A stretch of DNA of 63,171 nucleotides, filler included, from Reclinomonas americana ATCC 50394 (GCA_048213135.1; 6 parts of 4 records of this genome joined end to end with filler, not necessarily neighbours in it); one strand, 5' to 3'. Counted from the first letter of the whole stretch, positions 1 through 58,352 are shown. Program-made: numbers and translations. Notes: generated by a model from the letters alone, not told the origin.

Positions 1-1080
1 AGCGAAGAGCGCTGGTGACAGCACTGGGAACGCACAATGCAGGGTTACGTCGGCGTGCGCGCACACGTGTGTGTGTGTGCATTTTGCGCCGTGCTGTTGT
101 TGATTGATGATTGTGTGTCGTCCTCAGGGCTCCGTTTACCATTCAGCGATTGTGTGAGTTGCTGGTGGACCCGCATCGCCACTATCGCAGTCTGCGCAAG
201 TTTGTGTGCGCTGTGGACAAGGTGTTGAATGTGGTGTCACCGTCTACCGTGGCCACGGCGACCGACGACGAAATGGTGGCTGTCGACGATTCGGAGGAGC
301 CCCCCGTGCCCATGGAGGAGGAGCCACCGGTGCGTCGGCCCCTCCCCCTCTGCTTCGCCGCATGCACTCATATTGTGCACAGGTCACTCCCTCGGTGCCA
401 TCGCCGTTGCCGTCACCCGGTCGCACATCGTCGCTCTTCTTCGGAAGCCACAGTCCGAATCGCGTGCCGCTGATTCCACAGCACGCCATCAGCGAGCCTC
501 ATCCGTTGCATCACCAGCCACCACCTGAACCGTTCGAGGCGAATCCGTTGCCGTTCGAGGCTCACATGCCGCTGGATCCGCACCACGCTTCCGGCTCCGG
601 CAGCTCCAGTGGCAGCACCTCCCCACTTCTTCATCGACCGCAGTCGACGGCTTCCATGCGACCGCTGTCACCGCCACCGTCGCCACCGCGAGGCCTGCTC
701 GGCGCCAGCCACGTGGTACACCCACCAATGTCACCACCGCGGCTCCTATCACAGCAGCAGCCGCCAATGTCGCCACCATCTCCCAATGGTTTGTTGCTTT
801 CCCCCCGTGTGTGTTGACCAGTGATGGAATGGGGCCTGACGGCAACAACAACGCAGCACCAAGCTCGCTCTTCCACACACAACACCCGCCATCGGCGGTG
901 GGTGCTCTCTGGCGGGCTCATGTGGCCACGGTGGAGGAGCCCGACGAACTGGCTCCAGTTGAAATACGTCCTCGACCGCCACCACCGCCGCCGGCAGCAC
1001 AGCAGCAGCAGCAGCAGCAGAGTAGCAGCATGTCGGCGAGTGGGGACGCGGAAATGCGCGATGTCCAAGCGCCGGAATAA
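1..1080 (+). CDS. PPP4R2: PP4 regulatory subunit 2-like (PPP4R2/Psy4), 5'-truncated, spliced
   Basis: Motif APFTIQRLCELLVDPHRHYRSLRKFVCAVDKVLNVVS matches the conserved PPP4R2 core. A Pro/Ser-rich tail follows. Introns at 44-127, ~330-382 and 789-856; stop TAA at 1078-1080. Confidence 0.8.
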
Positions 1081-1170
1081 AGAGAATGCAAAGTTGGTAC
1101 GCTCTCGACGGTCGCAGCAGCAGGACACGTGATCCACGCACACACACATGCACCGCGGGGTGAGCAACGA

Positions 1171-3703
1171 ATGAGCGTAGCCTTTGTCGACAATCCAGTG
1201 TTTGCCGAGTACCTCGATGGTACACGCAGCAGCGCATACGCTCGTGTGTGAGCGGAGTGGACAACTGAGTGTGCCCTCTCTCTCTCTCTCTTTCTCCCTC
1301 ATCGCAGAGTTGCAGCAGTCTGGCATTGAGCTGCCCGCCGTCGACATTGTACCAGCACATGCCTTGCAGCACGAGTCCGATGAGAAGGAGCTGGAGCAGC
1401 ACGCACGAGACGAGGTCAGATGCTTCGCGTGCGTGTTGGAGAGTGCGCACAAACTCAATCAACGTGCGCCTGTGCAGAGCTTGTCTCGCACGCCACCGTC
1501 GATAGCACATGTTGCACCCGCGGTGCCTCGTTCTGATGGACTGACTCGTCTCTGGCGGAGGCGCCGAGCGCATGGTGAGGACTGATGAATGCAGGATGCA
1601 GTTTCTTCACCTTGACTCCTCTGTGACCATTGGCTGCGGACCAGATTCTGTGTGGCAGTGGAGTGCGGTGGCCCCCGGCGGCGAGCAGCAGGCCGTGGCC
1701 AGCGATTCCACCGACGAGGGCCAGCTGCAGCTCGTGGTCACGTGGCCGGTGACTGTCGCAGTGATCGCTGTGGTGCTTGCTCTACAGTCACAGTGCTGGA
1801 TCTGTGCCTGCGTCGTCATGGCGTTGTTTGCGATGCTGCTGGCGGTGGATTGGGTGCGTTGATTCGGGTAGGATGCAGCGTTTGTTCATGTTGTGTTGAT
1901 TGAGTTTGTGCAGTACCGGTGGGTGTTGCGGTCGTGTCGACTGGCGAATGTCGCGGCACTTGATCGGCATTTGAGTGCGTGGCAGGAGGCAGAGCGGGCA
2001 CTGGATGCGTGTGCTCGAGCCATTCGAGATGTGGAGGCTGTGCGTCGTGGATACTCGCTGTTGCGTGCTGCACTGCCCTTCTCATATCCATCAAGTGCGC
2101 TCACGAGCCGGTTGCAGTCGCTTCTCGGCCCCCATGTTTGTGCCCGATGGCAGTGAGCCGTCGTCGCAGCCGCTTCGTCGTGAAGTGCTGGGTATTGTGT
2201 GTGATCTGCGCTACAGTGTCTACCAGCGCCTCGGCGCGCTGCTGCCCGAGCGGTCACTGCCCGCATCCTCGCCTGTCGGTGCTTCGGAAAATCTGGAGGA
2301 CATTGGCAACGTGTTTACTGAGGCCGTCAGCACAGTGGCCGCCGTCTTTGATAGTGACCGCCTGTGCGTGGCGATCTCTCTCTTGCCTGGCCTGCACGCA
2401 TCTCTGCTGGCCGTAGTCTCTCGATTGTGGCAAGCATCGCGATTGGCGTGCACAGCGACTGCGGACGAACTCGCAGGCGACGATGCGAGCGCACTCAATG
2501 TGCTGCGAGTGCACGCCAGCCAGTTTGGGCGCGAGCTGGCAGCCGATGTGCGCGAGATGCAAGTGCATTTGTGGAGCATCGAGAGTCTCCTCGGACAGAC
2601 AGCAAGCGCGGACTCGTCCGCGACGCCGGTCCAGGTCATGTGCGAGCTGCTCGATCGCTGCCTCCGCATGTCGCAGGCGTTTGCGATGTGGCAGGATCGC
2701 CTGTGGCCGCAAGGCCGTGTCGGAAGTGCTGCTGGCACATCGAGTACCTCGTCGTTGCGTGGCACTGCTGTGGCGACGCGCGTGTTCCTGTTTGTTGAAT
2801 GCACGCTCACCGCTAGTGCCGCTCACGTAGCACCTCGGCTGCACTGGCGCGTCTGAACCCGTGGACGCAATACGTGCAAGCGGTGCTGGGAGACCGACTC
2901 GCAGATAGAGTATCGCTGTTGGCGGCAGATTGTTGCGCTGCATCACGCACCATCGTGTGCATGGTGACCTTGCTGCTGATGACATATCTGGCGATAGATT
3001 TTGCGAGGACGGGAACGGCGGTCGGTCGCCCAAAGCCGATACCAGCCGAGGGAGACGAGCAAGAGGAACACGCAGCAGGCGGTGACTGGAGAGCACCGCT
3101 GGCGAGTGTGCGTCTCGCAGACCTGCTGCAAATGGAGACGACAACGTTGGAGGTCGAGGCACTTGAAGTGGTGAGACACTGATACGTGCAGTTGATAAAT
3201 CTCTGGTGGTGCATGACCGTGGGGGGCGCGTGCTTTTACAGGCGACGGAGAGTGCACGGCGTGAGGCGGCTACCGGTTTGTGTTTCTCGTGTTACCGACG
3301 AAAGTTCGCATTGTGCTCTCACGTCTTCTGTCCCCTCGGCAGGCAGGTTTGCATTGCCGCCTTTGCCGATGCAGTTCGCCATGCGAGCGCAGCGGCGAGA
3401 AGAGGCCAGCATTGATGTCGACGATGTTGCGGCCGCCATGACTGCAAGCATGCCCAGCAGGGGTGCACCTACCACCCTCGGCGACAGTGACACCGATGAT
3501 GATGATGACGGCGCCGCGAGGTTCGATGTTTGTGCACACACTGTGCCGTCTCAGTTTTTCGACTCACTGCATTTCCATTCAGCGGCAGTCCGCTGCTGAT
3601 GCGCGAACTGAGTGCCGTGCTGCGCAATCGTCGGGAGATTCGTGAGTCACGAATCGAAGCAGGACGTCAGCCAGCAGCACCACCGGCGCCACCTGCGTCG
3701 TGA
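1171..3703 (+). CDS. Vezatin-like membrane protein, multi-exon
   Basis: Spliced N-terminus MSVAFVDNPVFAEYLDELQQSG resembles the vezatin 'ENSPLxxYL' motif. Two hydrophobic segments lie at ~1730-1850. ARAIRDVEAVRRGYSL resembles vezatin 'LIQEVELVSRGY', and C-terminal LLMRELSAVLRNR is also vezatin-like. Stop TGA at 3701-3703. Confidence 0.6.
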
Positions 3704-3846
3704 GCAAGCGACGACAAACCCCCGCATGCACGGACTGCACTTGTCATATTGTGCAAGTGTTCACTCAAGAGACCTGGTCACACCGAAAGAGTGCGCCAAG
3801 TCATCCCCAGCAGCTCCATCTAAACGCATCACGTGCGGCAGAAGGC

Positions 3847-6276
3847 TTAGATGGACAGCGGTTCATCCTGCGAGAATCGAACACACGAAAAAAGTGAACA
3901 ATCGCATCGCGTACTTGGAAACAACTCCGACAGTGAATGTACTCACTGCGCGTCCCAAAGCGCCAATGCCAGACGCCGACGACGACGACGAACCACCAAC
4001 TCGCACCGATGCACGTGAGTCGCCGCCAGACACTGTCGACGGTCTCTGCTGCACGCCACAAGATAACCATTGAAGTGAGTGACCTCTTCTTCTGAGTGCG
4101 TAGCAGCACAGCGATGGAGTCGGCACACACCTCCGCAGTGGGCGAGCCGCGAATCATCTCCAGCAGTCGGTTGCACTGCTCAATCATCTGCACAAGCAAA
4201 AAAAAGTCAGCATATACCCCAGACAGTCTCCAAACACACACACACACACCTGGTCGGCTGAATCGCTCTCGTCGCGTCCCGACAGGCTGAGAGCATTGGC
4301 CGTGGCCCACACCTTCTCGCGAATGAATCTCCGGTACTCGGCCGTGAGGTTCTCCAACACGCCCTCGAAACGAGCCTTCTGGAACTCGAGGCACGTCTCG
4401 TGCTGTACTAACGGCAGTCAGGGAAGGGGAGAGGACAACATAGCGAGGAAATAAATGAAGCACAGACCTTCTTGATCTCCTCGTCAAGCGCATTGATCTT
4501 CTTGGCCGAGTCGGTCTTTTGGCGCTTGGTGATTGCATCGGCAAGGTCGCCAGAGGAGAAATCGTACAGCTGCTGTGCCTCGGGGCGGCTCTTGATCCAA
4601 TCCTGCATACACACACACCCTTGTCAACCACACAAACAACTGCGAGGGAGATTGCTGCATGGTGAAGACGACGAACCACAAAGGAGCCAGATGAGCGGTC
4701 GAAGAAATCGGCCACATCACCCACATTTCGGTCCAGCGAGAATGCCTGGTGCCGGCAGGGGTGCAAGAGTCAGACACGCACGTACTCTGCAGAGCGAGAT
4801 GAAACCCGAGTGCCACCACACACCGTGGCCTCCATGTCCTTGCCCATGGCACCAGTGATGCGATCCAGCTCGAGCCACAGCCGCTTCGTCGTGTCGTCAC
4901 TCTCGTGAATGCCGAATGACTTGAAGCCGTCTGCCACGCTCGTCATCGACTCGGCCATGGCTGCTCTCCGTGTGAGAACGATATAACGAATGGGCGTCAC
5001 ATGCTGCCCGCTCACCGTGCTTGCCCTTGGCCAGCTTCGAGCACACCTGGGAGAGGTGGTGCAGATCCTTGCCCACGGCCTCCATGTACTCGATGGTGGA
5101 CTGCTCCTTGCCTGACAGACGCAGTGGATCGCCCTCGCCGGGCTTCGAGAACACGCCCTTGATCTTCTTGAGGCCCATCAAGAAGGACGACTTGGTGCTG
5201 CGCTTGCGCGACTCGGTGAGCGCCTTGGCACGAAGCACGGTCTCGGAGAACAACTGTGTTGGATGCACGCGTGTCAGCTCGCTGCACGACTCACGCGCAT
5301 GCAGCATGCCCACGCAACATCGGCCGAGTCCGAGATGAAGTGACGCAGATTCTGCGACGAGCGCAGCTGGTGGTGATCCGCAATCTTTTCCAAGAAAAGC
5401 TGCAGGCCAGCGACGCGCTGATCCTCAAACGTTGACGACAGCCGGTCTGTCACCGACACACAAGGGTGAGCGAGAGCAAGAGAGGGAGATCGCGTCATGA
5501 CACACACACACACACACCGACAAGAGACGAGTCGGGGGTCGGCGGAATCACAACGCCTGTGAACTCCTCCGCCAGCACCGAGCGCAGCCACTCAAAGTCA
5601 GCATACCGGCGGTACACAGACAGCTGTTGGCCGGCGCCCTCGCCTTGCACAATCTATGCACACGCACACACACCATGAGACGAGCGAGGACAGATGGAGA
5701 GAGACACGGCCGCGCCAACCTGCGTGTCAATCTGATAGAACGTGGTCTTGTCGATCTTGGTCAGCGACACCGCAAAGCGCATGAACGGGTCGCCAAACGT
5801 CACCAAGCAACTGCGTCGCCCGAGGAGCACAAGTGAATGCGAGGTCACGCGGGCGGGCATGTTGTTGCAGAAATAGGTGGACATCTCTCTCTCGCTCTCT
5901 CGCCCTCTCGCCCTCACTCATTCAGCAGACAGCGTGGTGATGAATGCCACTGTGCATGTGTGCAAAGAGACACGCAACGGCCGCTGCTGCAACACCGGAG
6001 AGGCGAGCCCCGACGCCGAGGCATACACCGAGGCGCGCGAGCCAGCTGCCGAGCCACTCACATCACTCCATCCAGGTGCCGACGACGATGACGCCTGCAG
6101 GCATGCACAAGAGACACACAGAGAGAGAGAGAGAGACAAAGAGAGAGAAGAGCGCGCGAGACAGTGAGCCATTTCGCCCCCACGCCAACTCTCACACACA
6201 CACGCACGCGCGCACAACAAAGAGCAGGTGAAAGAGGGAGAGCGCAGAGGCAGACAGGCGCTGCACACGCACCATG
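3847..6276 (-). CDS. PX-BAR sorting nexin (SNX1/2/Vps5-like)
   Basis: Spliced PX domain (SVYRRYADFEWLRSVLAEEFTGVVIPPTP...QRVAGLQLFLEKIADHHQLRSSQNLRHFI) followed by long helical BAR-like exons. The first exon is ATG only. Probable end DEPLSI-TAA. Confidence 0.8.
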
Positions 6277-6351: not shown

Positions 6352-7926
6352 ATGCAGTCGCCGCCTGACTCCAGCGATGATCGTTCCGGAGAGTTCTTCC
6401 GAGTTGCGTCTCTCACACTCTCTCACACACACACGCACACGCACTGTTCATTGACACGCTCGTCATCATCGCAGTTGGGCTCGCGCATTGGCGAGTATGG
6501 CATCCTCGCAGGCTCTGCGTCCACGGAGCTGGCTGAGCGCACCGCCACCGCCCTCGGCATTCACCTCATTCCCGCCAAAGTCTCCCGCTTTGCCGACGGA
6601 GAGGTGCATATGTGTGTGTGTGTTGGGAGTTGTTCCGCGACAACATCTACAGCACAAACTCATCTCCGATCGTCCGCCTTTTTTTTTATCTTGTGTATTG
6701 TGTATATAACACAGATTGGCGTCAAGGTGCTGGAGAATGTCCGTGAGAAGAACGGTACCGTTGTGTGTGTCTTGTGAGGCTTTGCTTTTCTCCGCTTTGC
6801 ATCTGATGCACCTGTATCTGTAACAGTGTTTGTGGTGCAGTCGACGGCACCGCCGGTCAACGACAACCTCATGGAGCTGCTGCTGCTGATTGATGCGCTG
6901 CGTCGTGCCTCGTGCAAGGTCTATACGTTTGATGTGGTTTGTCTTTTTTTTTGCTGTTTGTCATGGTGATCTCACGTGGGCCGCCATGTAGAACATTTAT
7001 GCGGTCATTCCGTATTACGGGTACGCGCGACAGGATCGCAAGACGCAGCCGCGTGTGCCCATCTCGGCGGCCTTGGTGGCCAAGCTCATTGAGGGCGTCG
7101 GCGTGCATGCTGTCATTGCCGTCGACTTGCACTGGTGCGCTATCACGCTGACTGACGTTGATGATAATGATGTGTGTTTTTGTGTCGCTGAGCCTCCGAG
7201 CCCACAGTGGCCAGATTCAGGGCTTCTTCGAGCGACCAGTCGACAACCTCTACGGCAGTGTGGTGATCAAGGACTACTTCCTGCAGCCCGAGTTCCGCGT
7301 GCCCAACCTGGTGGTGGTGTCGCCCGACGCCGGTGGTGCCGAGCGCGCCGACAAGTTCCGCTCGTACCTCGTGCAGGAGGGATTGGATGTGGGTTTTGCC
7401 ATCATGAACAAGACTCGCCCGCGTGCCAACGAGGTGCGCTGTGTGGTGTTTCTCGCTGCTGCAATAAGAAGAAAGGCGATGCGAGTCAACTGAACTTCGT
7501 GCGCGTGGCAGATCTCGCACATGGAGCTGATTGGCGACGTCAGTGGCGCGACCGTCATTATTGTCGACGACATGATCGACACTGCCGGCACTCTCTGCAA
7601 GGCTGCGCAGGTGCTGCGTGATGCCGGTGCAGGCGACATTTACGCGTGCGCCTCGCACGGTCTCTTCAGCGGCGAGGCTGTGGAGCGCATTGAGGCCAGC
7701 GTGCTTTCCAAGGTGTGCTTTCGTTCACCAATCATTTCAATAGAATGCGTTTTGCTCATCGCCCCCGACCCAGGTGGTGGTGCTCGACACCGTTCACACG
7801 GAAAAGACCAGCGAGAAGATTGTCACGCTGTCGGTGGCACCCTTGGTCGCCTCCGCCATTCGCCACGCCGGCGAGGGCCGCTCTGTCAACCAGCTTTTCG
7901 CCATGGCTGGTGTCTCCGGCCACTAA
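6352..7926 (+). CDS. PRPS: Ribose-phosphate pyrophosphokinase (class I PRPP synthetase)
   Basis: Motifs [68 protein letters not shown] and SHGLFS, joined through 7 GT-AG introns. Confidence 0.97.
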
Positions 7927-8299: not shown

Positions 8300-8333
<34 letters not shown>

Positions 8334-9047
8334 GTGTGTGTCGGAAGTTGTCTTCTCACGCTTCCGCATCACGACACGCAGAAGGGCAACTTTGATTCGT
8401 CGGCCACAGTCACCGCCGGCCTTCTCAAGGAGGTCCTCTGCATCGACGGTGCATGCATCACGGCCGACCTCGATGGCGACCTGCAGTCACAAGGCAAACA
8501 GGTTCGGAAATGACTTGTCGGTGTTGCTGCCTGCGCTCGTGCAAGTGTGCACTGCTGACGATGTGTGTGCGTCTGTTGCGCGCAGACTCTCATCTTCCTG
8601 ATCTTTGGCGAGATTGCGGTTGGTATCGCTCTGGCATTCTACATTGTGTTCTGGCTGAAGGGATACCGCTTCCTGTGGAAACTGCTGGCCATTCTGTTCC
8701 ATGGTGCCGGCGTCGCTCTCTGCTTCATTGGAGTCATCAAGTACACCACGGGTGTGAATCGCCAGGGTGGCAGCTGGGACTACTCGTATATTGTCACGTG
8801 GCTGATTACCCTCGTCGGCGCCCTGATCGTGTTCTTCCCGCTGTTCTTGAGACCGACGCCCGAGGACAAGATGAAGCGGCCGCTGTCGGAGCACATGGGT
8901 GGACCCGAGCGGAGTGACACGCTGTTGCGTCTCTCTCTCTCTCTTGCGTTCTCTCGTCGCGTCTCCTGCTTTGTCACTCGCCCTCACTTTCCGTCGCGTG
9001 ACTGCAGCATGGTGCCTGCAAAGCATCCACACAGCGATTCCGTGTAA
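7994..9047 (+). CDS. Four-transmembrane claudin/PMP22-like protein
   Basis: Four hydrophobic segments. The first loop has a W...GL...C...C pattern (PHWV...TAGLLKEVLCIDGAC), and WDYSY precedes the last TM segment. The last exon is uncertain. Confidence 0.55.
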
Positions 9048-9166: not shown

Positions 9167-12100
9167 TCATGGTGGTGGCGCGGCAGCTGACGCCGACGAC
9201 GGCTTGGCAGTGGCGTCCTGGTAATGGTGATTGTAGTCGAGCCGCACGAGCAAGTCTCGCAGGTGTGGCTGACTGCGGTAGCGCCGCTCGTCGAGACGCG
9301 AGAGCACCGTGACCAGAAAATTGGTGCACTCGCGGAACACATGCTGACTCTGCGCCAGTGGCTGATGCAGCGGGTGCTGTGTGGCACACACACAGATGTA
9401 TGAACACGAAAATGTACAGGTGGGCTTGACGGCACAAGAATTGGCACGCACAATGGTCAACAGCTCCGGATAGTCGAGACAGTCACGCAAGTCCTCGCAC
9501 TGAGAGTCGAATAACCGCTCAAACTTGACGGCCTCCCGGTGCAGCTCGCGGAACACTTGCTGGAGCGAGCTGGCCTTCTCGTTCAGCAGACATCTGCGCG
9601 CACAAATACACGAGCATCGTACCGTCAGTGACACACACACAGACCAACAACCAGTGGCAACGACAAGAGGCGTCACCTTTGGAGGGCTCGATTCAGGTAG
9701 GCCTCGTGCAGGTTGCGCAGCGCCTCCACCGACTGCACCTGGTCGAGTCGCTCCACAAAGTCCGACCAGTTGACATCCAGCACTTGCGTCATGAGATATT
9801 GCTGCATGATGCTGATAAAGTGTTGCATCTCGTGGCGGAACAGCGACAGCTGTGTGGTGAGGCCCGAATGGTTCATCTTGAAACCGGCCTCTCGCAGCTT
9901 CACCCACATGCGCTTGATTGCCGCAGACAGTGCCATGTAGCGCATGAAGAAACGGAAGAGCACATTGTACGCTTGCAACGTGCGCTGCGTGATCACCACA
10001 TTCAGAGGCCAACCGACACAGTAGTCAACTTCGAGGCAGTCCATCAGACTGAGATCTGCATTGGGTGGACAGGAATGAGCAAACGAGACGCACGATGCAG
10101 CCTCGCTGTCGAACGACTCACCGTCGACTGATTCGAGTTCGCTGAACAGCGGACGCAGGCGGAACCGCAATCGATGATGATGTGGCAACGACGACTCGTA
10201 GTTCATGCTCTTCAGGCAGCGAGTGAACACGGCCTGCACGTCGAGGTGCCATGGACTCGCCGAGGTTCGTATCTGCCCCCAACAACAGGTCAACAGCCCT
10301 GTTCAGCTCCCGTCCAACTAGAAACCCTTGAGACGAGCAAAAACACACCGCAGTGACAAACTCGCTGGCAAACATGTCAAACAGATCACCCTGTTGCGTG
10401 AGCAGGTACCGACGGAGAGACTCGAGGTGCCCAGCCAAGTCGACATCGTTGATGAGGAAATGAAGCGCGGCCTCCTCCACGGCTTGTCGCCTGTACGCAC
10501 GCATACACAGCCGAGTTAGCTCCATGGTCGTATTACATCGGAACACCGAGACACATAACTGCGCCATCAGTGGACGAATCACGTTTTCGTGAATCACCAC
10601 GTCCAGCGGCACCTCCAGATCCACACCAAAGTCATCGTGCTCCAGCTCATCATCATCACCACGGCCATCGTCGTCGTCGTCCTCATCGTCGCCATCGTCG
10701 TCATTGTCGGCAATGTCACTATCGTCGCCACCGGCATCGTTGGCGATTGCTGCCAGAGCGTCAGTTGATGGTGCAGCCGGTGACTCCGATGGAACTGACT
10801 GCGCAGCAACAACAAGTGGGGCCGGTTCAGCGGCGGACAGCGACTGCAACTCGCCGCGCTGCACGACCTCGTCCACAATCGATCGCAGAGCAGAAACCGG
10901 CGTGGACGCAGCCACCATGACTGCCACCGCACTCGGCAGCTCGCCGTCATCATCATCCGCCAGCTCAATGTGCACAGAGCCAGCGACTGTTGCGTCTCTG
11001 GAAGCCGTAACCACCTCCGCTGCACTGCTGTCGCCACCACCAGCGACGGTAGCGACGGCGATCACAGTGCCCGCCGCCTGTTCGGTAGATTCCGCGGCCG
11101 ACACCTCGGGCATATCGAAGCTTAGCCGACGGAACGGACGCGCCAACGGGCTCCCACTGTCGCTGTGGACAACATCGCCTCTGGCGACGGCAGCCAGCTC
11201 CGCCTGCAGTCGCGATTCTTCCTCGCGCAGCATCCGTCGACGCTTCTCGGAGCTCTCCAATCTTCTCCGTCGCCACTGACTTCGAGCTAGTTTGCGTGCA
11301 CTCTGTGTACGAGAAATACATGAGCACCAGGAGGCAGACAGATCATTACCACGGCGATCGATCACACACCCTTTCAGTCATCTCCTTGTACTCGCGTTCA
11401 ATCTGCTTCCGTGCTGCGTCGAGCAATAGGCGATCGCTCTCCAGCTGTCTTTGCTCTCGATCGAGCTCCTGCAAGCGCACCCCGAGTCAGGCGAGACAAG
11501 CTCTCCCGAATACACAACACAACAACACTCAACTTCACGCTGACGCTGCGCGGCCTCCTCGCGTGCGTGCTGCAGTTGCGCTTGATGCGCGCTCTGCATC
11601 TCCGTCATGAGCCGTCGCCGCCGTGAGACCTCCTGCATCGCCAGCTCTCGCCGTTGCTGTCGCCATCGTTTGAACAAGTACGTTTCCTGCGATAGGGAAG
11701 TACTTGCACGATGAACAGCAACAACACACACACACACACACACACGGAAGGCACATCTGCTACACAGATCGCAACTCGCTCCGCCAGTGTGAGAAGTCGT
11801 GGCACACCGGTCAGTGATGCCGGCTCTTCGCCAGTGATAGCTGTTCGGATGGTCACCATTCGGTCGCGAAGTTCGCTGGCGTACTGCTCCTCCCGCCTTG
11901 TCAGCACCAGTTGCCGCAGCACTCGCTGCTGTTGTGTCAGATGGACGATTTTCTGTGGACTGACTGTGAGAGACACCACCGCACATTGTCGCGCGAGAAA
12001 AAAAACGACGCACATCATGTGTCAGGCCGACTCGACGTTGTTTGCTCCGCACGTCGAAGCGAGGCCGCAGAGTCTCCCACTCCAGCACACATTCATCAAC

Positions 12101-45506: not shown

Positions 45507-47716
45507 TTACAGTCTATTAAAAAAGGTGGCGTGGCGTCAGACACACGATAGCGGCGGACAGAGAGGGACTGACGACAACGACAACGCAACTTCTTCACAA
45601 TCTGCACGACATCTTCGTCCTCCAGAATGTGATCGCGGCCGACCTTTTGCGGATTGTGCCGTGCTGACCGTCCCCATACCCATGCACTGCATGCATCGCA
45701 CAGTGAGCAAGACGACGGCAACATCAGCTGCTTCCGTAAAAAGCAACGCAACTACTTGAAGTCCTTGAGAATGGCGCGATGGATCTTGTTGCAAAAGTGT
45801 TCCATCGAGCACATGTGGGACTTGAGAATGACGGGGGCCGAGTAGTCAGGGAACTGCCCTCTGGGCTTGGTGTAACTGCAGGCAGGGTGCGAGACAGTGA
45901 GCACGGCGCTCGAAATCTCAGAACACGTACGAACACCACAAACAACAAGAGCAATCTCGGAAGGTTGTATCGGGCGGAAAGACAGCAGACTGTCGCCAGT
46001 CACCCTTCTATCCTTCCTGGAAAGAATGGAAGAGAGAGAGAGAGACAAGAGAAGAGAATTGCGCCGAATGACTCACATGCGGACCAAGCTCAAGTACTCC
46101 CAGATGCGTTCCAGCAGCTCATCCAGATTCCAGCTGTGTTCGGCCGAGATCGGCACCACGTGCGGCAGCTTGAACAGAATGTCGAGCTCCTCGATCGTGA
46201 TTGCGTCGATCTTGTTCAACACATAGATGCACGGAATGTAGATGCTGTGTGTGCGTGGCGCTGCCGTGAGCGACCACCACGTAAGAATATAGACCACCCA
46301 AGGAAATAATCAACTCACCGGTTATTCTCCAGCACATCAATGAGATCGTCGGCGGTGGCATCGCATCGGAAGCACACGTCGGCATTCGGAATGCGATACT
46401 CGTTGAGGATGTTTGACACGGTCTCCTTGTCGAGGTACGACAGATTCGTCTACGCACCAATCTCATCAGCATGGGAGCAGGAGGCGGCGAAGCATCCATC
46501 CACAGCGACTCACCGTCGACGTAATCATGTGTCCACCACGCTCCTTCTTGCGGAACTGGATGTCTGGCGGCCGCTTGTTGAGACGAATACCAAAGCCCTC
46601 GAGTTNNNNNNNNNNNNNNNNNNNNNNNNNNNNNNNNNNNNNNNNNNNNNNNNNNNNNNNNNNNNNNNNNNNNNNNNNNNNNNNNNNNNNNNNNNNNNNN
46701 NNNNNNNNNNNNNNNNNNNNNNNNNNNNNNNNNNNNNNNNNNNNNNNNNNNNNNNNNNNNNNNNNNNNNNNNNNNNNNNNNNNNNNNNNNNNNNNNNNNN
46801 NNNNNNNNNCCGACTCAATGATACGCTTGTGAATGGCAGGACGCGTGGCATCCAGCACAATCAGAATGAGCGAGCACGTGCGCGCCACGGCAATGACCTG
46901 CCGACCACGACCCTTGCCGTCCTTCGCACCCTCAATGATACCCGGCAAGTCCAACATCTGAATCTTGGCGCCACGGTACTCGACCAAGCCCGGCACGCAT
47001 GTGAGCGTGGTGAACTCGTAGGCGCCGACCTCGGAGAACGAGTTGGTCATCTTGTTGAGCAGCGTCGACTTGCCCACCGAGGGAAAGCCTACAAATAGCA
47101 AATGAAATGAGAATGGATGGATGCCCTTCTTGAGTCCCTCTGTGTGACTCTCTCTCTGACCTACGAATCCCACACGTGCATCTCCGGTCTTTGCGACATC
47201 AAAGCCCTCGCCAGCGCCCTTGGAGCCTCCCGTGGGCGCAATGAGCTCGCGCTTCAACTTGGCCAACTTGGCCTTGAGCAGACCCAAGTGACGCGCAGTC
47301 GCCTTGTTCTTTTGCGTGCGGGCCATCTGCATTCAATCACACACACGCACACACGCACANNNNNNNNNNNNNNNNNNNNNNNNNNNNNNNNNNNNNNNNN
47401 NNNNNNNNNNNNNNNNNNNNNNNNNNNNNNNNNNNNNNNNNNNNNNNNNNNNNNNNNNNNNNNNNNNNNNNNNNNNNNNNNNNNNNNNNNNNNNNNNNNN
47501 NNNNNNNNNNNNNNNNNNNNNNNNNNNNNNNNNNNNNNNNNNNNNNNNNNNNNNNNNNNNNNNNNNNNNNCACAAAAGAGGGTGAGTTTGTGAGGGGCAT
47601 GTCAATGACGCAACACTCTTTCTCGCTTTCGCTTTCACTCTCTGTCTCTCTCGTCTCTCTCGCTCACACGCGCTCACCTCGGCCTCAATGTCCTCGATTT
47701 GTTGCGCGACAGACAT
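45507..47716 (-). CDS. DRG1: Developmentally regulated GTP-binding protein 1 (DRG1/Rbg1)
   Basis: Motifs [10 protein letters not shown]...[56 protein letters not shown] and NKID; the TGS domain ends [15 protein letters not shown]. Confidence 0.97.
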
Positions 47717-47803: not shown

Positions 47804-48348
47804 ATGGATCGTTGCGCGCTCTTTGTGTGCTTCTCTCTTTGTCTCTCTCTTTGCGACTCATCCTTGTGTGAGCAGCTCGAGGACAAGACGCGCCGTCAGG
47901 CATTCCCGATGAGCTGTTGGACGTTGCGCGCGCTCTTTGTCTCTCTCTCTGTGACTCTCTCTCTCTGTCTCTCACACATGTGCACATGTACAGGAGAAGG
48001 CAGCAGAGAAGGCCGCTGTTGCAGTGCAGAGCAAGATCAACTTGCAGGTACAAGTGATTCGCACGCATGCATTGTGATCATCTCCTCTCACACACTCTTT
48101 TCTCTCTCTCTGTGTGCAGAGCCTGCCCATTCGTGCGTACCTCGACCAGACAGTGGTGCCTGTGTTGTTGCAAGGACTGGCGGCTGTGGTGCGCGATCGG
48201 TGAGCATGTCTTGCCTTGTGTATGTGTTGTTTTTCCAAGTTGTTCAACTCCCCCTCCTTCCTTCCATTCTTGCAGACCTGCCAAGCCCATTGAGTACCTG
48301 GCGGCGTACTTGCACAAGCGCAGCGAGTCGAATGTGGAGAAGGAATGA
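47804..48348 (+). CDS. DPY30: DPY30-like protein
   Basis: Five exons give ...[44 protein letters not shown], the Dpy-30 motif. Confidence 0.92.
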
Positions 48349-48590: not shown

Positions 48591-50510
48591 TTACACCGAC
48601 GACTTGGCCGTGCGGAAGCCGACATCGGATTGCGTCTGTGTATGCAGTCGTGTCAGCGTGCTTCGTGATCGCCGTGGAACAACAAGGGGCAGTCGACGCA
48701 ACTCCCTCCTCGTCGTTCGAGGCGTGTGGTTGCGGCTCATCGTCGGTCGCGGCCTTGTTCTGCATTCGTGAACACGGGTGAGCATCTCCCATCGCTGCAG
48801 CTGCATACAAGTGTACAACGAGAGACCTTGCAGCCGACAACCAACTGGAAGACACCGTTGACAACAAGCAGAATGCCGGCAATGAACTGCAGCAAGTGCG
48901 AAGGTCCTGGACGAGCGGGGCAGCGAGGCGTGAACATCAGACGCGTGGGAGGGGAGAGAAGAGCGACGATGGTGACTCACCCCACGACGCGGCCAGTGTG
49001 CCGATGAAGATGTAGAAGTAGCCACGACCTGGATAATCATGTCAGAAGTGAGGAAGGGAGAGGCGAGGGAGTGAGGGAGAAGGGAAGGCAAGGAGAACAC
49101 GAAGTGCAAGGACGAGGTGTACGAGAAATAAGCTCCACATAAAGAGACGGAAGAGGCAGGGACTTACAGGAAGAGATGCGAGGGCGGAAGACGAGGGAGA
49201 ACGAGAACAAGAAATGCAAGTCAACAGGAGCGATAGATCCCACGGAAAGAGAAGCATGGCGAGGTGTATGAGAGTCAAGCTGTGTAGACAGAGAGTCAGA
49301 GGTACCCACAGATAGAGAGAACGGCAAGGAGTGAGCAACGAGAACGAGAGACGGAAAGACAGAAATGCAAGGACGAGATGCCGTGGAAAGAGAATGCTGG
49401 AAGTGATAAATGAGAGACAACCTGCGTAGAAAGTGAGAGTGGGAGAGACGGAAACGAAAGAAGAGAAAGGGCTGGAGTGAACGGGAACGAGAGACGGAAA
49501 GATAGAAATGCAAGGACGAGATGCCGCGGAAAGAGAATGCTGGAAGTGATAAACGAGAGACAACCTGTCGTAGAAAGTGAGTGGGAGCGATGGAACGCAA
49601 ATGGGGAACGAGAAGAAGAGAGAACGAGAGATGGAGTACGGGAAGGAGAGAACGAGAGCAAGAATGACAAGGCTCCATCGAAAGCAAATACAGACAGAGA
49701 GAAGACAAGACCGTAGGCAGAGAAAGAGAGAGAGAGAGTGAGGGAAGGAGACAGAGCGAAGAGGGCGAAGACAAGTCCCGCTCATTTCATGCATGCTCCT
49801 CCTTTCTCACCCGTGTTGGTCTCCATGAAAGCAAATCGCCTGAAGATGAAGCGGCACTTCAACTCGGACACTACACACACGCACACACACACATGAGCAC
49901 ACACGCAGAGGAACACACACACAAAGACGAAAAACACACGCAACCAAATCCAATAAACGCGAACGCACTGCGCAGCAAACAAACTCAGTCAGCCAGTCAC
50001 GAGAGTGAACGCAGACACAGCGTGTGCAAAGAGCGAGACGCAACATGAGGTAGATGGAGAGCACCTGCAAGAAGTGCATCAGTGAGCAAGACAAAGACAA
50101 CACGCGCGCACACACACACTCACCAGCTCAAACAAGTTGAAGGAGACAATGACACCGAGCAACGAGAAGACGCCGACCACGGCCAGACCAAGGCAGCATG
50201 CGAGGCCGACAATCTGCACACACACACACACACACACAGAGTGTCAGTGTGCGCGCATTTGAGTGAATCTCTTGTGTGTGTGTAACGCGTGGAACAGCAA
50301 TGAACACAGCACGACACTGCGCTGTGTGTTTGCTCTCATTGTGCGCTCGTGCGTGTCCGTGTGCGTGTGCTCAACACAAAGTCATCGACATGGCGGCAGA
50401 CACACACACACTCTCTCTCTCTGTCTGTGTCTGCGTGTGCGACTTACCCGTGAGATGCGCTCCAGCTTGGTCATGCCCTGTGTGGGCGCGGCTTGCAACT
50501 GCGACTGCAT
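48591..50510 (-). CDS. COPI-associated / Tvp15-like Golgi membrane protein
   Basis: Spliced product has about four TM segments and the family-like motif SELK...FAFMETNTGRGYFYIFIGTL. It includes a 782-nt intron (49029-49810). The start is at 50510 or 50474. Confidence 0.75.
49090..49600. repeat. Degenerate intronic direct repeats (~100-nt unit)
   Basis: 49342-49445 closely matches 49485-49586 (GAACGAGAGACGGAAAGAYAGAAATGCAAGGACGAGATGCCG...). Weaker copies lie near 49095 and 49200. Confidence 0.85.
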
Positions 50511-50763: not shown

Positions 50764-53700
50764 TTACGGGCTGAGGCGCAGTGGGGTGCGCGGGAACATG
50801 GACGTCTTCTTCACGTTCATCACACCCACAATGAAGCCGGTCAGGCGCTCGAGTCCGAGGCCGAGACCAGCGTGCGGCCAGCCACCTGTGGACAAGTGAT
50901 TAGTGACAAATGTGACAAGCAGATGGGCGGGGCATCATATTGCGACACGCACCGTAGCGCGTTGAGTCAATGTACGCACGCAAGGGGTCCGGGTTCACGC
51001 CGCGAGCACGCAGCCGCTCAATGAGCAGCTCTGGCTCGTGGACGCGCTGTGCGCCAGAGGCGATCTCTTGGCCACGCAACATGAAATCGTACGAGTTGGA
51101 GTAGTTCTGTGAAGCACGGGCCATTAGCATCTTCTTCTCCTTTTCCTCCTCCTCCGCAAGCGAAGGGGTAAACTCACCGGGTCCTCGGGGCACGGCATGG
51201 TGTAGAACGGACGTGCCGCGAGCGGGTACTTGTGCAGAATGTAAAAATCGGTGTCGTACTTTTCGCGCACCAACTCGCCCAGCTTCTTCTCCTGCGGCGT
51301 ACTGCACGTAAAAAAAAGTATTCAGCAGTGAGCACCCACTACCAACAACATCCACTTTCCAATCAACGTGCAAAATACGCAACGACAAATCGCCATTCGG
51401 GTCGGCATCGGCGACACCGGCCTCCTGCAGCATGCGAATGCCCTCGCGGAAGTCCAGTCGCAGGTTCGGTCCGTCGCGGTTGTACTTCAGTGGCTCACCA
51501 CCGTACTGCGCACGGATCGAGGCCAACTCTGCCGGGAAGCGCTCCTCCACCTACGCCCAACCAACAAAATGTGGTGAGTGCAAGAGAGTGAGTGACACAT
51601 AAACACTGGTCCACTACACAGTACCTTGTTGAAAATGTACACGAGGAGAGCGTCGAGCACGTCGAGTGCCTCAAAGTAGTGCTCGTTAATGGTCATTTCC
51701 ACGTCGAGACCAATGAACTCGGTCAAGTGTCGTGGCGTGTTGCTGTTCTCGGCACGGAACACTGGCGCCACCTCGAACACACGCATCAAGTCACCCTCTA
51801 CGGCCATTTCCTTGTACAGCTGCGGTGACTGTGCCAAGAATGCCTCGCCTGCACATCAACGCCACTGGCGTCAGATACGTCCATTATACATGCAGCAGCA
51901 GCAGNNNNNNNNNNNNNNNNNNNNNNNNNNNNNNNNNNNNNNNNNNNNNNNNNNNNNNNNNNNNNNNNNNNNNNNNNNNNNNNNCAGCACACGCACCTTC
52001 AAAGTACTTGACGCGGAACACCTCAGCACCGCCCTCACTGGCACCGCCAATGATCTTCGGGGTGTGAATCTCCACAAAGTCCTGTGCGCACAGGAACTCG
52101 CGGAAAGCCTGGCCAACACCGCTCTGGATGCGGAACATGGCCACGTGTGCGGGCACACGGAGATCGAGCACACGCTGGTCAAGGCGCGTGTCCGGGTCCA
52201 CACGGGGTGCATCCTGTTCCACCAGACATGAGCAACAGTGTGCGCGTACACACACACGCTCCAAGGCAAGTTAGGAGCGCACGAACCGCGAGTGCGGCAG
52301 CACTGCCGGAACCAGAGCCATCCTCCGGCGCCTCCGGCCTTGAGGCATCCTCGATGCCGAGTGGCAGCACTGGCTCCGAGGCACTCACCAAGTACAGATT
52401 CAACACCGCCAGCTCCACGTCGCCCTGTGTGGCCGACTCCACCTTGGCCTTGGCCAACACACCCACCACATCGACAATTGATTCGCGGGCGAGACTGCAA
52501 GCGAGCGCGGAGTGAGTCATCGTCATGTCGCCACCACGAGGTGAATGTCGCACGAACCCAGCAGCAAACTTGATCATCTCCTTGGTCGTGTTGTTCTCAC
52601 CGATAAACATGCACGCCTGCAACGAGTACATGCCGTGGCGGAGCACAAGGAAGCAGCCCTTGGCTGGTGGAGAGAGAGAGAATGTTCTCAAAAACCATAA
52701 TCCACAATCATCGTTGTGACATACGAGGCGTGCGTACCTTGTGCACGCGAGTTGTGAATGCGAGCGCGCACCGTCACTTGCATGCCGGCCTTGTCGCCAT
52801 TCAAATCCTTGATGGGAGTCCACACACGGTTTGTGCGTATCTGCGACTGCAGACGCGGATATATGCCGTACGGTGCCGAACCCGACACAATCTCGGCAAA
52901 CTCGAGCACGCGACCCTAGAAGCACCTGGATCAGTCAACCCGTCGTCGAGCGAGTCACAAATGCACATCACCGCTTGTGTACCTTGGTCGCTGCTGCTGC
53001 CGCCGCAGCAGCGGCATCAGCCTGACGCTTGCGCTCCTCCTTGCTCAGCTGTAATCATTATCGGAAAAAAAGTGTCGGTCATTGCACCTCCCACACCAGT
53101 CACATATCGCCACACCAGCATACCTTAGGAGCCTTCTCCTGACAATCGCACACACACACACACGCACCAGTGAGCACCATCGCAAGAAGGGGAGCAGTCT
53201 CACATGACCACACACCTTGCCACCCTTCTTGCCCTTGCCCTCACCACCCTCGCTCGATGCCACCGCTCCTCCTGCAGCAGCAGCAGCAGCCGGCGGTGCC
53301 TTGTTGCCCTTCTTGCCCTGGCCAGCCTGTACGAGCACAGACACAGTCGGCCAACAATAGATCTTCCGTCGACCCACGCAGCGTGTGACTCACCTCCTGC
53401 GACGATGCAGCAGACGCACCCGAGTCACCCCCAATCAGACCACGCGGCATGGTAAACCGCAGAGCAATGCTGGCGTACTCCTCGGCAAGTGCCGCAGCCA
53501 CCGATGCCGGACCACTCTGCACTTGCAAAGACAAGTCGTGAGCATTTGATCGATTGCTGATGGCGATGCGCGCACACACATGTGAAGCTTACTGTACGTG
53601 TGTATGTGTGTGGGAGTGAAGAGAAGGTGGGGGCGGGGGGTGCACAAAAGGTCATGTTTGACAACATGCATGACGCGCAAAAACAAACACAAAGGGGACA

Positions 53701-53956: not shown

Positions 53957-55797
53957 AAAAAGAGAGAGAGAAAGAGGGCCTCGTCAGCATGTGCGCCCAC
54001 ACGAGACAAAAGACAAATGGTGGAGTACGCAACGCAATGGCACTCTCTTGGTCACTCTTGCGCTCAATACGCGCAAAGTACTTGTCGTCGGCACTCCACT
54101 TGAAAATGGGCCATCCATCGCGTTCGAGAATGCCCTGGAACTCGCGCAGCTTGCGGCCCGTGCGAATGTCCCAAATCAGAGTGTTCTGCCCCAGGCACAC
54201 GCACAGCAGTGAGTCACACGAGCTGCAAACGTCATGCCACACAGTGCCACAAGAAAGAACAACATGGTGTGCGCTCAGGGAAGTCAAGTGTCTGTCACAG
54301 TCAAGCGACTAAGAGTTAATTCCGTTTTTCCTACATCACAGCGCGATTCTCCACTACCGTGTGCCACCCCCAAACCAACCAACACACACACACAACACGC
54401 ACCTTGCCGTCGGGATTCATCTGCGGACCCCACGTCACGAGGAACTTGTCGTCGGGTGAGAAGTCGATGCGCTGGATACCATTGTGCACAAAGCGGCGAA
54501 TGAGGTGGAAATCGTGACCGCCCCACAATTGCACGCCCTTGGGGTGGAGTGTGGCCAGGTATTGGCCCGAGTGCGACCATTGTGCCACCGACTCGGTCCA
54601 TCGCTGTTGATAAGAGCACAGTGAGCACAGGAAGGGCGAGAAGGTGCACATAAGATTCGCGGCAAAAACACACACACACACCTCACGCGAGTGCTCCAGA
54701 CGCGACTGCTGTGTGGGATCGTGCCAGTACACCTCGTTGCGACTGCCGTAGCGGATCAGGTACTGATCACGACCGCGCTCGTCCAGCAACCAGTCCATCA
54801 GGTTTTCCTGCAATCGCAAGCAATCGTCAGCACAAACACAATCTCTCTCTTTTTGCTGTTGAGGAGGGTGTGCCGCAACTGGCTCCTTGAAAGGCTCCGG
54901 CTTGAACTCTCCATACTCGGGATTCATGCTCATGACGCGCTCGTAGTCGGAGAGCAGGATTGCCGAGAGTGTGTGCGACTTGTCAAAGAGCAGGTTATTC
55001 AACGCCTTGACGCCCTCCTCCGCCGCCTCCTCCGACGAGAACTCGATGAAAGCTAGGCCCTTGGTGCGCTCGCTGTCGGGCGTGAACGGCATGCGGATTC
55101 TGTCAATCGGCACCTCCTCCACTCGCGATGCGTGCTTTGCCACGACCTTTCGCAGTCTGTCGTACTTGCTGCGATCGACCTCGGGCAGGTGATCGACGAG
55201 CACCACATTGCCAAGTGACTGTGTCCACGTGAAGGGCAATGAGCCAAAAACAATGACCATGAATGCGGGCAAAGGGAGTGCATAAGTACCTCGTCCAACA
55301 CCACGTCCTCCTCATCCTCCGGGTACTCCTGTTATGCGTCGCACGCAGACAAGTGAGTGAGTGTGTGTGTGTGCACATTGCCGGACATGTCTTCTCACAA
55401 GACTCTGGCGCACAAGCGCAAGTAGAGAGGGTAGGGCAAGCGCATGTGTACAGGAGGCGCATGCAACACGACAGATGATGCACAGGTGCGGGCAGGGTGC
55501 ATGGACAACGTGGACGATGTGCACATGGTGGTCACCATGCCACTGTCACACATAGACACACACACGCACACAACCACGCGCATAGCAACACATGCATCAA
55601 CACGCATGCAGCAGCAGCAGCAGCAGCGCCGACAACAAGGCGCGAGAGGGAAACAGGGGAGAGGAGAGGGGATGCGCGGCATGCACGCTCCCAAAAAAGG
55701 GCGCATTCTTCTTTTCTTCTTCTCTCGCTCACTTCACCCTCTCTAAGGCGCGCAGACTGACCTCTTCTGGGGCTGGTGGGGCCGATGAAGACGCCAT
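53957..55797 (-). CDS. EIF3B: Translation initiation factor 3 subunit B (Prt1); 3' part lost in gap
   Basis: RRM (VVLVDHLPEV, TKGLAFIEF, FDKSHT) followed by ENLMDWLLDERGRDQY, RWTESVAQWSHSGQYLATLHPKGVQLWGG and WPIFKWSADDKYFAR. Confidence 0.96.
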
Positions 55798-57027: not shown

Positions 57028-57525
57028 TTACTCGGCCTTGACCGTGGCCGCAATGGCGTCGCCCTTCTCTGCCACCGACAGCAGGCGCTCCACTTGCTCA
57101 ATCTGCAGCTCTTCGTTGCTCTTGCTCTCACCCTCCGGGTTGACGGGGATTCTTCGCAGGTTGGGCGACAGCTTCAGCGACAGCGTGCGTCCCTTGTCGT
57201 CGCCGACCAGGATGATGGGGTCGGACTTGCTGAACACGACGTGGGTCAGCTTGGCCTTCTTCACGACCTGCTGCGAGCACATCGGCTCGTTCTTGTTCTG
57301 GTTGAGGTCGAACACGTGCACCTTGCCGTCGGCGGTGACCGCCGCAAACACAGTGGACGAGTACGGAGCCCATGCCACATCGTTGACGGCGTTGCCGAGA
57401 TCGAACGACATGACCGGTCGCGTCTGCTCGTGGTCCCAGATCTTGACGGTCCAGTCGGCACTCGCCGAGATGAATATCCGTCGGTGGAACAGGTTCCACG
57501 CCACCTTGTACACGGCCATGTAGTG
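57028..57525 (-). CDS. DNAI1: C-terminal exon of DNAI1 (contig apparently inverted)
   Basis: HYMAVYKVAWN...ISASADWTVKIWD...DVAWAPYSSTVFAAVTADGKVHVFDL...SLKLSPNLR is the direct continuation of the + strand part. Confidence 0.92.
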   Translation of the reverse strand, partial: HYMAVYKVAWNLFHRRIFISASADWTVKIWDHEQTRPVMSFDLGNAVNDVAWAPYSSTVFAAVTADGKVHVFDLNQNKNEPMCSQQVVKKAKLTHVVFSKSDPIILVGDDKGRTLSLKLSPNLRRIPVNPEGESKSNEELQIEQVERLLSVAEKGDAIAATVKAE

Positions 57526-57728
57526 NNNNNNNNNNNNNNNNNNNNNNNNNNNNNNNNNNNNNNNNNNNNTTAATTAATTAANNNNNNNNNNNNNNNNNNN
57601 NNNNNNNNNNNNNNNNNNNNNNNNNCCACGCTGCGATTGTCTCTCTGGAAGGAGCTGGAGTGAATCGGGAAGGGAGAGCATCGCTGTCGTCTGTTTCTCA
57701 TTCGCACTCGCTCCCTTGCTTTTGCAGG

Positions 57729-58352
57729 AGTCTCGTCGCCACCTGGTCAACCAGCACTTCCGCAAGATCTCGATGGTGATGGATTGCGTCGGGTGCGAAA
57801 AGTGCCGCATGTGGTCCAAGCTGCAGACTCTCGGCATCGCCACCGCCCTCAAGATCATGATGTCCGACACGCCGCTGGCGTTGGTCAACATGGAGCGCAA
57901 CGAGATCATTGTTGCGTGCCTCCCCTCCGTCACCTCCGTTGACCCATTTGCTGACACGCACGTGCGTGCGCACAGGCGCTGGTGAACACGGCGCAACACT
58001 GGGGCGAGTCCATCGAGGCAATTCGTGAGATGCGCGAAATGCAATGGATGGTATCGTCGTTCGGTCGCTTGTGTGGGCATCACAACAACACTCCTGATTC
58101 ACTCTCTTCCTCCTGCAGGCCACCGTGTCGTCCACCGTCTCGGTGGCTGCCGTCGGTCTCCTCGCGCTCACGGCGTTGTACATGACGGTGCTGTGCCTGC
58201 GGACGCTACGGAAGAGTCGCCCCGCCGCCGCCGCCGCCGCCTCGTCGGCGACTGCCTCGAGGTCGTCACCCTCCATCAATGGCAGTGGCAGCGGCGCCTC
58301 TGCCACTGTCAACGGAACGATTGCCGAGTCAGAAGACGCCAAGACCAAATAA
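57729..58352 (+). CDS. ERO1: ER oxidoreductin ERO1, C-terminal part
   Basis: [34 protein letters not shown] (CxxCxxC active site) and spliced ERNEIIALVNT, followed by a hydrophobic segment. Confidence 0.93.

Follow-up and report, generated by a model that had tools for sequence, protein, structure and literature searches.

Genes of the window and homology tests of the GTTGCG donors

The stretch of DNA analyzed here (the window) is 63,171 bases long, contains 2,286 N in 17 runs, and has a GC content of 0.578 with N excluded. It is eukaryotic and dense in genes and introns, and both strands are coding. Pfam searches with open frames and predicted exons matched a PRPP synthetase, a gamma-tubulin complex protein, an amino-acid transporter, a BTB/BACK/SPRY protein, a formin, a DAO-family oxidoreductase, AspRS, WD40 proteins, ERO1, a spermidine synthase, MsrA, and a PX-domain protein. 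An RRM/WD40 protein from the same scan is eIF3b, and DRG1 was recognized by eye and through homologs. Our subject is a group of 5' splice sites in these genes that begin with GTTGCG. An earlier, sequence-only reading of this DNA had listed 30 such donors. All 30 coordinates carry the hexamer (on the minus strand, the coordinate is that of the first G), and only two, 31140 and 49944, are preceded by an exonic G at position -1, as that reading had said.

To fix junctions by conserved protein sequence, we scored all frame-preserving GT/GC-to-AG pairs near each junction against fetched homologs. Frame restoration was tested in this way for 3 of the 39 GTTGCG sites that were predicted or claimed, and a domain boundary was used for the ERO1 gene. 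These four introns are as follows, with a slash marking the junction and lengths in nucleotides (nt).

45687..45752, minus strand, GTTGCG intron in DRG1, FKY/AWVWG, phase 2, 66 nt, from homologs
51302..51383, minus strand, GTTGCG intron in AspRS, GDLS/TPQEK, 82 nt, from homologs and predicted
54808..54879, minus strand, GTTGCG intron in eIF3b, KEP/ENL, 72 nt, from homologs and predicted
57911..57975, plus strand, GTTGCG intron in ERO1, RNEII/ALVN, 65 nt, from the Pfam boundary; the gene finder has the same donor with a later acceptor, 58118

In DRG1, the GTTGCG donor at 45752 scored 279.6 against 12 homologs, versus 258.8 for a GTAGTT three bases upstream. A one-base slip at this donor yields TAG, and the DNA permits no alternative canonical boundary; the homolog score and the TAG together bear out the claim that cleavage there is before the GT. 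In AspRS (15 homologs), the donor at 51383 scored 174.0, versus 163.0 and 161.9 for its competitors, the latter being a GTCGTT at 51386. The eIF3b donor at 54879 reached 179.4 with 14 homologs; two GC donors scored 175.6 and 172.7, the next GT scored 167.5, and the unspliced reading scored 157.6. In ERO1, the Pfam match (profile positions 280 to 338 of 354) stops at 57910, on the residue that directly precedes the donor; past the 65-nt intron, the sequence resumes with ALVN. Therefore, GTTGCG is the donor that homologs prefer in DRG1, AspRS, and eIF3b, the ERO1 domain boundary agrees, and the claim that conserved protein fixes these donors held. Ten other donors were checked by homology.

46513, GTGAGT donor, DRG1
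46318, GTGAGT donor, DRG1
46076, GTGAGT donor, DRG1
51177, GTGAGT donor, AspRS junction test
50952, GTGCGT donor, AspRS junction test
52737, GTACGC donor, AspRS junction test
51624, GTACTG donor, AspRS junction test
52557, GTTCGT donor
54681, GTGTGT donor, eIF3b junction test
47160, GTCAGA donor

A G at -1 precedes nine of these ten donors and none of the three GTTGCG donors. DRG1 mixes both types, with three GTGAGT donors and one GTTGCG. At the other end of this gene, DRG1 homology stops at ...QIVKK, precisely at a GTTGCG at 45590 (minus strand, phase 2), and the stop codon would then fall in a further exon. An intron there, whose acceptor is uncertain, would interrupt a conserved gene within its final codons.

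Gene models and the two donor classes

Most introns of the window set are predictions of a self-trained gene finder. This was a Viterbi finder with a 3-periodic coding model, first trained on homology-supported exons; any GT or GC was allowed as a donor, and the -1 base was never scored. An initial version with flat signals and no intron length cost fused genes, recovered 5 of 33 claimed donors and 4 of 9 homology-checked donors, and was superseded. With flat donor scores and a length cost, GTTGCG was chosen at 6 of 70 donors, its background frequency among GT hexamers being 0.011 (binomial p 1.3e-4). Only GTGTGT (7 donors) outranked it, though GTGTGT is four times commoner in the window. Iteratively learned donor scores made GTTGCG the top donor, at 25 of 156 and then at 31 of 176 in the final run. 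Because self-training may amplify a signal, we clamped the GTTGCG log-odds while the other hexamers were learned. GTTGCG kept 14 of 156 donors with the clamp at 0, 8 of 155 at -1.5, and 3 of 145 at -3. At -3, the finder moved three bases upstream to GTCGTT donors, a choice that the homologs contradict at 51386.

The final model predicted 22 of the 30 claimed GTTGCG sites and added 9 further ones, and all 31 predicted introns terminate in AG. When forced, the eight remaining claimed sites fell 0.9 to 7.1 log units under the optimum; they include the homology-supported 45752 (-1.2), where the finder had ended DRG1 at the TAG that arises from read-through of the donor. The claim that at least 30 introns need a GTTGCG donor held overall, and the sites at 32436, 25037, and 2932 (-7.1, -7.0, and -5.6) have the least support. 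Among the parallel forms that had also been proposed, GTTACG at 34810 was predicted, and GTTACG at 44 and GTTTCG at 41977 were near-optimal when forced (0.0 and -1.4). In the list below, "claimed" sites are those of the sequence-only reading, "extra" sites come from the finder only, and "forced" values are log units relative to the optimum.

2060..2117, plus strand, GTTGCG intron, claimed, predicted
2754..2830, plus strand, GTTGCG intron, claimed, forced -3.0
2932..3120, plus strand, GTTGCG intron, claimed, weakly supported, forced -5.6
5254..5318, minus strand, GTTGCG intron, claimed, predicted, at the PX-domain end of a sorting-nexin-like gene (PX profile 47-83 of 84 in the preceding exon)
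5811..5978, minus strand, GTTGCG intron, claimed, predicted
6403..6474, plus strand, GTTGCG intron, claimed, predicted, near the PRPP synthetase N terminus
15255..15348, plus strand, GTTGCG intron, claimed, predicted
19157..19229, plus strand, GTTGCG intron, claimed, predicted
19653..19720, plus strand, GTTGCG intron, claimed, predicted
24152..24207, plus strand, GTTGCG intron, claimed, predicted, BTB/BACK/SPRY gene, chosen under flat scores too
25037..25102, plus strand, GTTGCG intron, claimed, weakly supported, forced -7.0
28366..28447, plus strand, GTTGCG intron, claimed, predicted
29033..29101, plus strand, GTTGCG intron, claimed, predicted
29730..29790, plus strand, GTTGCG intron, claimed, predicted
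30720..30773, plus strand, GTTGCG intron, claimed, predicted
31140..31213, plus strand, GTTGCG intron, claimed, predicted, G at -1
32436..32506, plus strand, GTTGCG intron, claimed, weakly supported, forced -7.1
35464..35529, plus strand, GTTGCG intron, claimed, forced -1.7
39588..39826, minus strand, GTTGCG intron, claimed, forced -0.9
42091..42096, minus strand, GTTGCG donor, claimed, acceptor uncertain; predicted with acceptor 41898, which conflicts with the claimed exon ending at the 41977 donor
45284..45590, minus strand, GTTGCG donor, claimed, directly after the DRG1 C-terminal VKK, forced -1.2; acceptor uncertain, past the end of homology
47811..47875, plus strand, GTTGCG intron, claimed, predicted, Dpy-30-like gene
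47923..48119, plus strand, GTTGCG intron, claimed, predicted, Dpy-30-like gene
48636..48702, minus strand, GTTGCG intron, claimed, predicted, low-complexity gene
49871..49944, minus strand, GTTGCG intron, claimed, predicted, G at -1, tiny exons, low confidence
49968..50044, minus strand, GTTGCG intron, claimed, predicted, tiny exons, low confidence
8924..9007, plus strand, extra GTTGCG intron, predicted, low confidence, flanking exon not retained
22965..23039, plus strand, extra GTTGCG intron, predicted, chosen under flat scores too
23958..24024, plus strand, extra GTTGCG intron, predicted, chosen under flat scores too
32179..32313, plus strand, extra GTTGCG intron, predicted
43298..43360, minus strand, extra GTTGCG intron, predicted
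14667..14731, minus strand, extra GTTGCG intron, predicted
14179..14269, minus strand, extra GTTGCG intron, predicted
13055..13129, minus strand, extra GTTGCG intron, predicted, G at -1, donor chosen under flat scores too, flanking exon not retained
11687..11775, minus strand, extra GTTGCG intron, predicted, gamma-tubulin-complex gene
24760..24814, plus strand, GTTGAG intron, predicted
31938..32008, plus strand, GTTGAG intron, predicted
34148..34214, plus strand, GTTGAG intron, predicted
11469..11533, minus strand, GTTGAG intron, predicted
33190..33256, plus strand, GTTATG intron, predicted
10491..10559, minus strand, GTTATG intron, predicted
34810..34874, plus strand, GTTACG intron, claimed, predicted
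44..127, plus strand, GTTACG donor, claimed, G at -1, forced 0.0, at the window edge in a poorly scoring gene model
41898..41977, minus strand, GTTTCG donor, claimed, forced -1.4

The hexamer itself is overrepresented. GTTGCG occurs 91 times in the window (47 and 44 copies on the two strands), versus 58.9 expected from a 2nd-order Markov model, and GTTGCGT occurs 41 times, versus 12.8 expected. Of the 91 copies, 39 are predicted or claimed donors in the sense orientation, 18 lie in sense in exons, 8 lie in sense in introns, 21 are antisense, and 5 are intergenic, so that sense and antisense copies number 65 versus 21. The share of copies that serve as donors is 27 of 41 for GTTGCGT, 18 of 134 for GTGCGT, and 14 of 66 for GTGAGT.

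We then compared donors among the 147 predicted introns of up to 300 nt whose flanking exons were kept. Donors with G at +5 were termed class I (87 introns), and donors with T at +3 and G at +6 but no G at +5, GTT[G/A]NG, were termed class II (34 introns); 26 introns belong to neither. Class II consists of 27 GTTGCG, 4 GTTGAG, 2 GTTATG, and 1 GTTACG. As the sequence-only reading had described for ordinary donors, class I mostly has G at -1 (66 of 87), versus 2 of 34 in class II; the seven GTTGAG, GTTATG, and GTTACG donors likewise lack it. The anticorrelation between GTTGCG and a G at -1 was confirmed within the window on the union of all 39 GTTGCG sites, with 3 of 39 versus 40 of 49 G+5 donors (Fisher p 7.8e-13). 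It is also seen when the core is held similar, with a G at -1 in 10 of 15 GTGCG donors versus 2 of 27 GTTGCG donors (p 9.9e-5). Independent positional frequencies predict 0.86 GTTGCG donors versus the 27 seen, and we rejected chance combination of bases on this ground.

The class II core is rigid, with C at +5 in 28 of 34 introns; in class I, the corresponding position, +4, is C in 25 of 87 (p 1.1e-7). The idea of a displaced register agrees with the motif, because GTTGCGT is G/GTGCGT moved by one base, and the T at +6 of class I (64 of 87 introns) has its counterpart in a T at +7 in class II (22 of 34). In other respects, namely length, branch-like motif, acceptor, and GC content, the classes are alike. 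Median intron length is 68 nt in class I and 70 nt in class II. A CT[ACG]A[CT] branch-like motif lies within -50 to -5 of the 3' end in 61 of 87 class I and 27 of 34 class II introns, at a median distance of 19 and 22 nt, respectively, and acceptor position -3 is C in 73 of 87 and 32 of 34. At mRNA level, class II junctions tend to have one G on the 3' side rather than the 5' side. The class II introns concerned are spread over the window, for example, 24152-24207 (plus strand), 54808-54879 (minus strand), and 14667-14731 (minus strand); class I introns without a G at -1 show no such bias (5 of 21).

GTTGCG donors are thus real in three to four conserved genes, and they form a discrete class without G at -1. 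Judged from the DNA, the analysis confirms GTTGCG as a genuine and common second class of GT-AG spliceosomal introns, making up about one in five introns of the window. The claim of a mainstream class therefore stands, at 34 of 147 well-supported predicted introns in the window, 27 of them GTTGCG.

U1 pairing and competing explanations

To our knowledge, out-of-register reading of a 5' splice site is known only as a rare mammalian exception. Shifted-register mammalian sites were reportedly described by Roca and Krainer in 2009 and are summarized by Tan et al. 2016 (PMC4856993), and the bulge +2/+3 register of human 5' splice sites was reportedly described by Roca et al. in 2012. U12-type (minor) introns have a rigid 5' motif and a rigid branch motif and are read by U11.

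Class II donors resemble the mammalian shifted-register sites in that both are GT-AG, with the U1 pairs moved by one, the +1 G standing in for the -1 G, G/U at +6/+7, and cleavage at GU, the pairing being our proposal for class II. They differ in number, as the human sites are a handful and class II holds 34 of 147 modelled introns; in the core, which is AAG in humans and GCG here; and in the kind of proof, which is genetic for the human sites and statistical here. With the U12-type introns they share the existence of a second rigid 5' motif beside the main class and the lack of a need for an exonic -1 G, and U11 is a precedent for a dedicated small nuclear RNA (snRNA). Unlike U12-type introns, class II shares the CT[ACG]A[CT] branch-like motif and the CAG end of class I. 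We rejected a U12-type assignment on the donors, since GTTGCG, GTTGAG, GTTATG, and GTTACG are not the minor-class 5' motif; no search was aimed at the minor-class branch motif.

According to excerpts of Tan et al. 2016 (PMC4856993), 1.5% of 201,541 human sites fall to all validated noncanonical registers combined; Table 3 gives 68 predicted human bulge +2/+3 sites. Excerpts of a study of six diplonemids (PMC12621601) describe (G)/GTATG donors or noncanonical introns. The (G)/GTATG donor, an example of the strict consensus that small-genome protists can have, is likewise a lineage-typical extended motif. It is a single consensus with a -1 G, whereas here two mutually exclusive motifs occur within the same genes, such as DRG1. 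Among the papers listed when full-text literature was searched by motif, many of them on primers or variants, none described a GTTGCG/GUUGCG donor class, a search that a lineage-specific account could have escaped. The wider literature on odd protist splice sites yielded one relevant paper, the diplonemid study, whose excerpts describe other motifs.

We propose that class II donors are the main consensus read in a shifted U1 register, with the U1 5' end adapted to GUGCGU, and we give this reading, of which the register and the U1 sequence are inferred, a probability of roughly 0.45. The main-class donor is G/GT[G/T]NGT, and class II would be G/GTGCGT displaced one base into the intron, with one mismatch. 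The G at +6 and T at +7 would take the places normally held by G at +5 and T at +6. The +1 G of the intron would fill the U1 pairing slot usual for the exonic -1 G, which would make the exonic -1 G dispensable. Cleavage would stay before the GT, where U6, U5, and Prp8 presumably set it at a later step. Stability would suffer from the internal mismatch, so other positions would have to match perfectly, giving the rigid GCG core. The predicted U1 5' end would be complementary to GUGCGU rather than GUAAGU, with G and C replacing the two pseudouridines of textbook U1. In duplex folding, such a hypothetical U1 (G and C at positions 5 and 6) pairs with GUUGCGU at -10.4 kcal/mol and with the other class II forms at about -5. 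These energies match the class II frequencies of 27 versus 4, 2, and 1, which is why a GC-adapted U1 5' end is predicted.

Several results weigh against this shifted-register model. The textbook U1 5' end, taken for folding from PMC4856993, forms its best duplex with GUUGCGU in the shifted register, at -2.5 kcal/mol, versus -6.9 with GUUGAGU. This duplex is weak, so the model requires a changed U1. The sequence-only reading had invoked the rare mammalian-type shifted or bulged U1 pairing, which is unsupported in that form, because textbook U1 prefers GUUGAGU, yet GCG outnumbers GAG 27 to 4. In class I, position +4 is T in 36, C in 25, A in 24, and G in 2 introns; this mild pyrimidine preference lacks the strong C preference expected from a G at U1 position 5. 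The -1 G is depleted in class II (3 of 39), not just neutral, and the next exon begins with G after 18 of 34 class II versus 18 of 87 class I introns; the shifted-register model explains neither. The final finder recovered 6 of 9 homology-checked donors and fused neighboring genes, and the register itself comes from statistics on one 63-kb window. An Rfam scan of the window gave no match at gathering scores and, at E <= 5, eight weak and irrelevant matches, with no snRNA among them.

The main alternative, which we consider rather unlikely, is a dedicated second U1-type snRNA or variant U1 copy, fully complementary to GUUGCGU, which would act in the normal register beside ordinary U1, by analogy with U11. 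It would suit the strict bimodality of the donors (27 GTTGCG versus 0.86 expected), the rigid core, with C at +5 in 28 of 34 versus C at +4 in 25 of 87, the lack of a -1 G preference, the poor pairing of textbook U1 with class II, and the bias of the class at the first base of the downstream exon. It would leave as coincidence that the motif is the main consensus moved by exactly one base; moreover, GTTGAG, GTTATG, and GTTACG parallel variants of the main class, and the branch motif, length, and acceptor are the same as in class I. A similar degree of doubt applies to the view that the major spliceosome has two parallel 5' splice-site systems, G/GTGNGT and H/GTTGCGT...CAG/G, the latter coupled to the first base of the downstream exon. 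That second system would serve about a fifth of the introns, using a second U1-type snRNA or a U1 5' end rewritten to ACGCA-type complementarity.

Ordinary U1 could also bulge one U (+2 or +3) of the donor and make its remaining pairs as with G/GTGCGT. Like the human bulge +2/+3 sites, which ordinary U1 recognizes and of which Table 3 in the excerpts of PMC4856993 predicts 68, class II has an extra U after GU and a G displaced to +6. On paper, the bulged helix exceeds the shifted one in stability and retains G+1:C8 and U+2:A7. When given a -1 G together with the hypothetical U1, the folding program picks the bulged form, at -10.2 kcal/mol. However, a bulge leaves C9 of U1 free, so that pairing with a -1 G remains useful and a -1 G should stay favored; instead, it is depleted, in 2 of 27 GTTGCG versus 10 of 15 GTGCG donors (p 9.9e-5) and in 3 of 39 sites of the union set. 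We therefore rejected the bulged U, which we regard as improbable, and favor the shifted register over it.

That the class arises from gene modelling, the real donors being nearby GT or GC or the regions not being introns, is very improbable. Most sites depend on ab initio models, forcing three of the claimed sites costs 5.6 to 7.1 relative to the optimum, several sites belong to genes of low complexity whose exons are tiny (48.6-50.5 kb), and a penalty of -3 on GTTGCG switches the finder to GTCGTT-type donors three bases upstream. However, homologs favor GTTGCG over all alternatives in three genes, including 51386 (161.9 versus 174.0), copies are biased to the sense strand (65 versus 21), the enrichment under flat scores is significant, and the -1 base differs (p 7.8e-13) although it was never scored. 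Even less credible is a mobile intron family, such as an introner-like element, with GTTGCG as its conserved end. Class II introns do share a common start of 6-7 nt and are uniformly short (54-208 nt). Their interiors are unrelated by eye, though, and their lengths are distributed as in other introns. All-against-all blastn of the 147 intron interiors gave 10 short hits and none between class II pairs, and introner copies were rejected for this lack of shared similarity.

Genomic setting and implications

Genes are tightly packed on alternating strands, with about 80-150 bases between some predicted genes. Excerpts describe Andalucia godoyi as intron-poor (PMC7050145) and Diplonema papillatum as carrying long arrays of genes in one direction, with 1.6 introns per gene (PMC10161547); the window fits neither of these nor the six diplonemids. 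WD40 exons are predicted on opposing strands within 1.5 kb, adjoining ERO1, at 57028-57519 (minus strand) and 55501-56780 (plus strand). Because the finder joined ERO1 to the plus-strand WD40 gene, gene boundaries there are uncertain. Five pairs of 44-base N runs each enclose 12 real bases (17545-17644, 26101-26200, 53857-53956, 57526-57625, and 59451-59550); the other N runs are longer, at 80-826 bases, and one interrupts DRG1 (46606-46809) and another AspRS (51905-51984). This N pattern suggests masking or scaffolding, not a biological feature. Intron microsatellites of (TG)n and (CT)n are abundant, for example, in 15255-15348 (plus strand), 49871-49944 (minus strand), and 54604-54681 (minus strand), and TGTGTG/CACACA is the top hexamer pair in the window, with 396 copies. 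Among predicted donors, GTGTGT ranks second (18 of 147); the one at 54681 is homology-checked, and others may be misplaced inside the repeat.

In a set of 5.8 billion proteins, the best match to the window was 89%, for a single DRG1 exon, with no identical protein. The best named match of DRG1 is a jakobid protein, at 82%. The DRG1 exon searched against metagenomes gave 80 loci with a top identity of 75%, and no close relative was found there. For the eIF3b exon 54880-55260, a search against longer proteins gave 231 candidates, none significant, and a representative-protein search was used instead. The closest DRG1 relatives in the protein set (P0001, P0002, and P0004) are gene predictions running through introns placed where the window DRG1 has its own, after ...LVRM and after ...NR, so related, unsequenced organisms have these intron positions too. 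In a quick, unfinished AspRS tree, the window sequence pairs with one protein on long branches, away from kinetoplastids and Heterolobosea.

In practice, gene finders that rely on a single donor matrix would get roughly one in five introns of this genome wrong, much as our own finder ended DRG1 at a TAG. The shifted-register model gives a sharp, checkable prediction for the U1 5' end of the organism. If it is true, with about 20% of introns carrying a rigid displaced motif, an out-of-register mode of reading can be stable and mainstream in a free-living eukaryote. Such a genome would offer hundreds to thousands of natural substrates in which U1 docking is uncoupled from the cleavage defined by U6 and U5.

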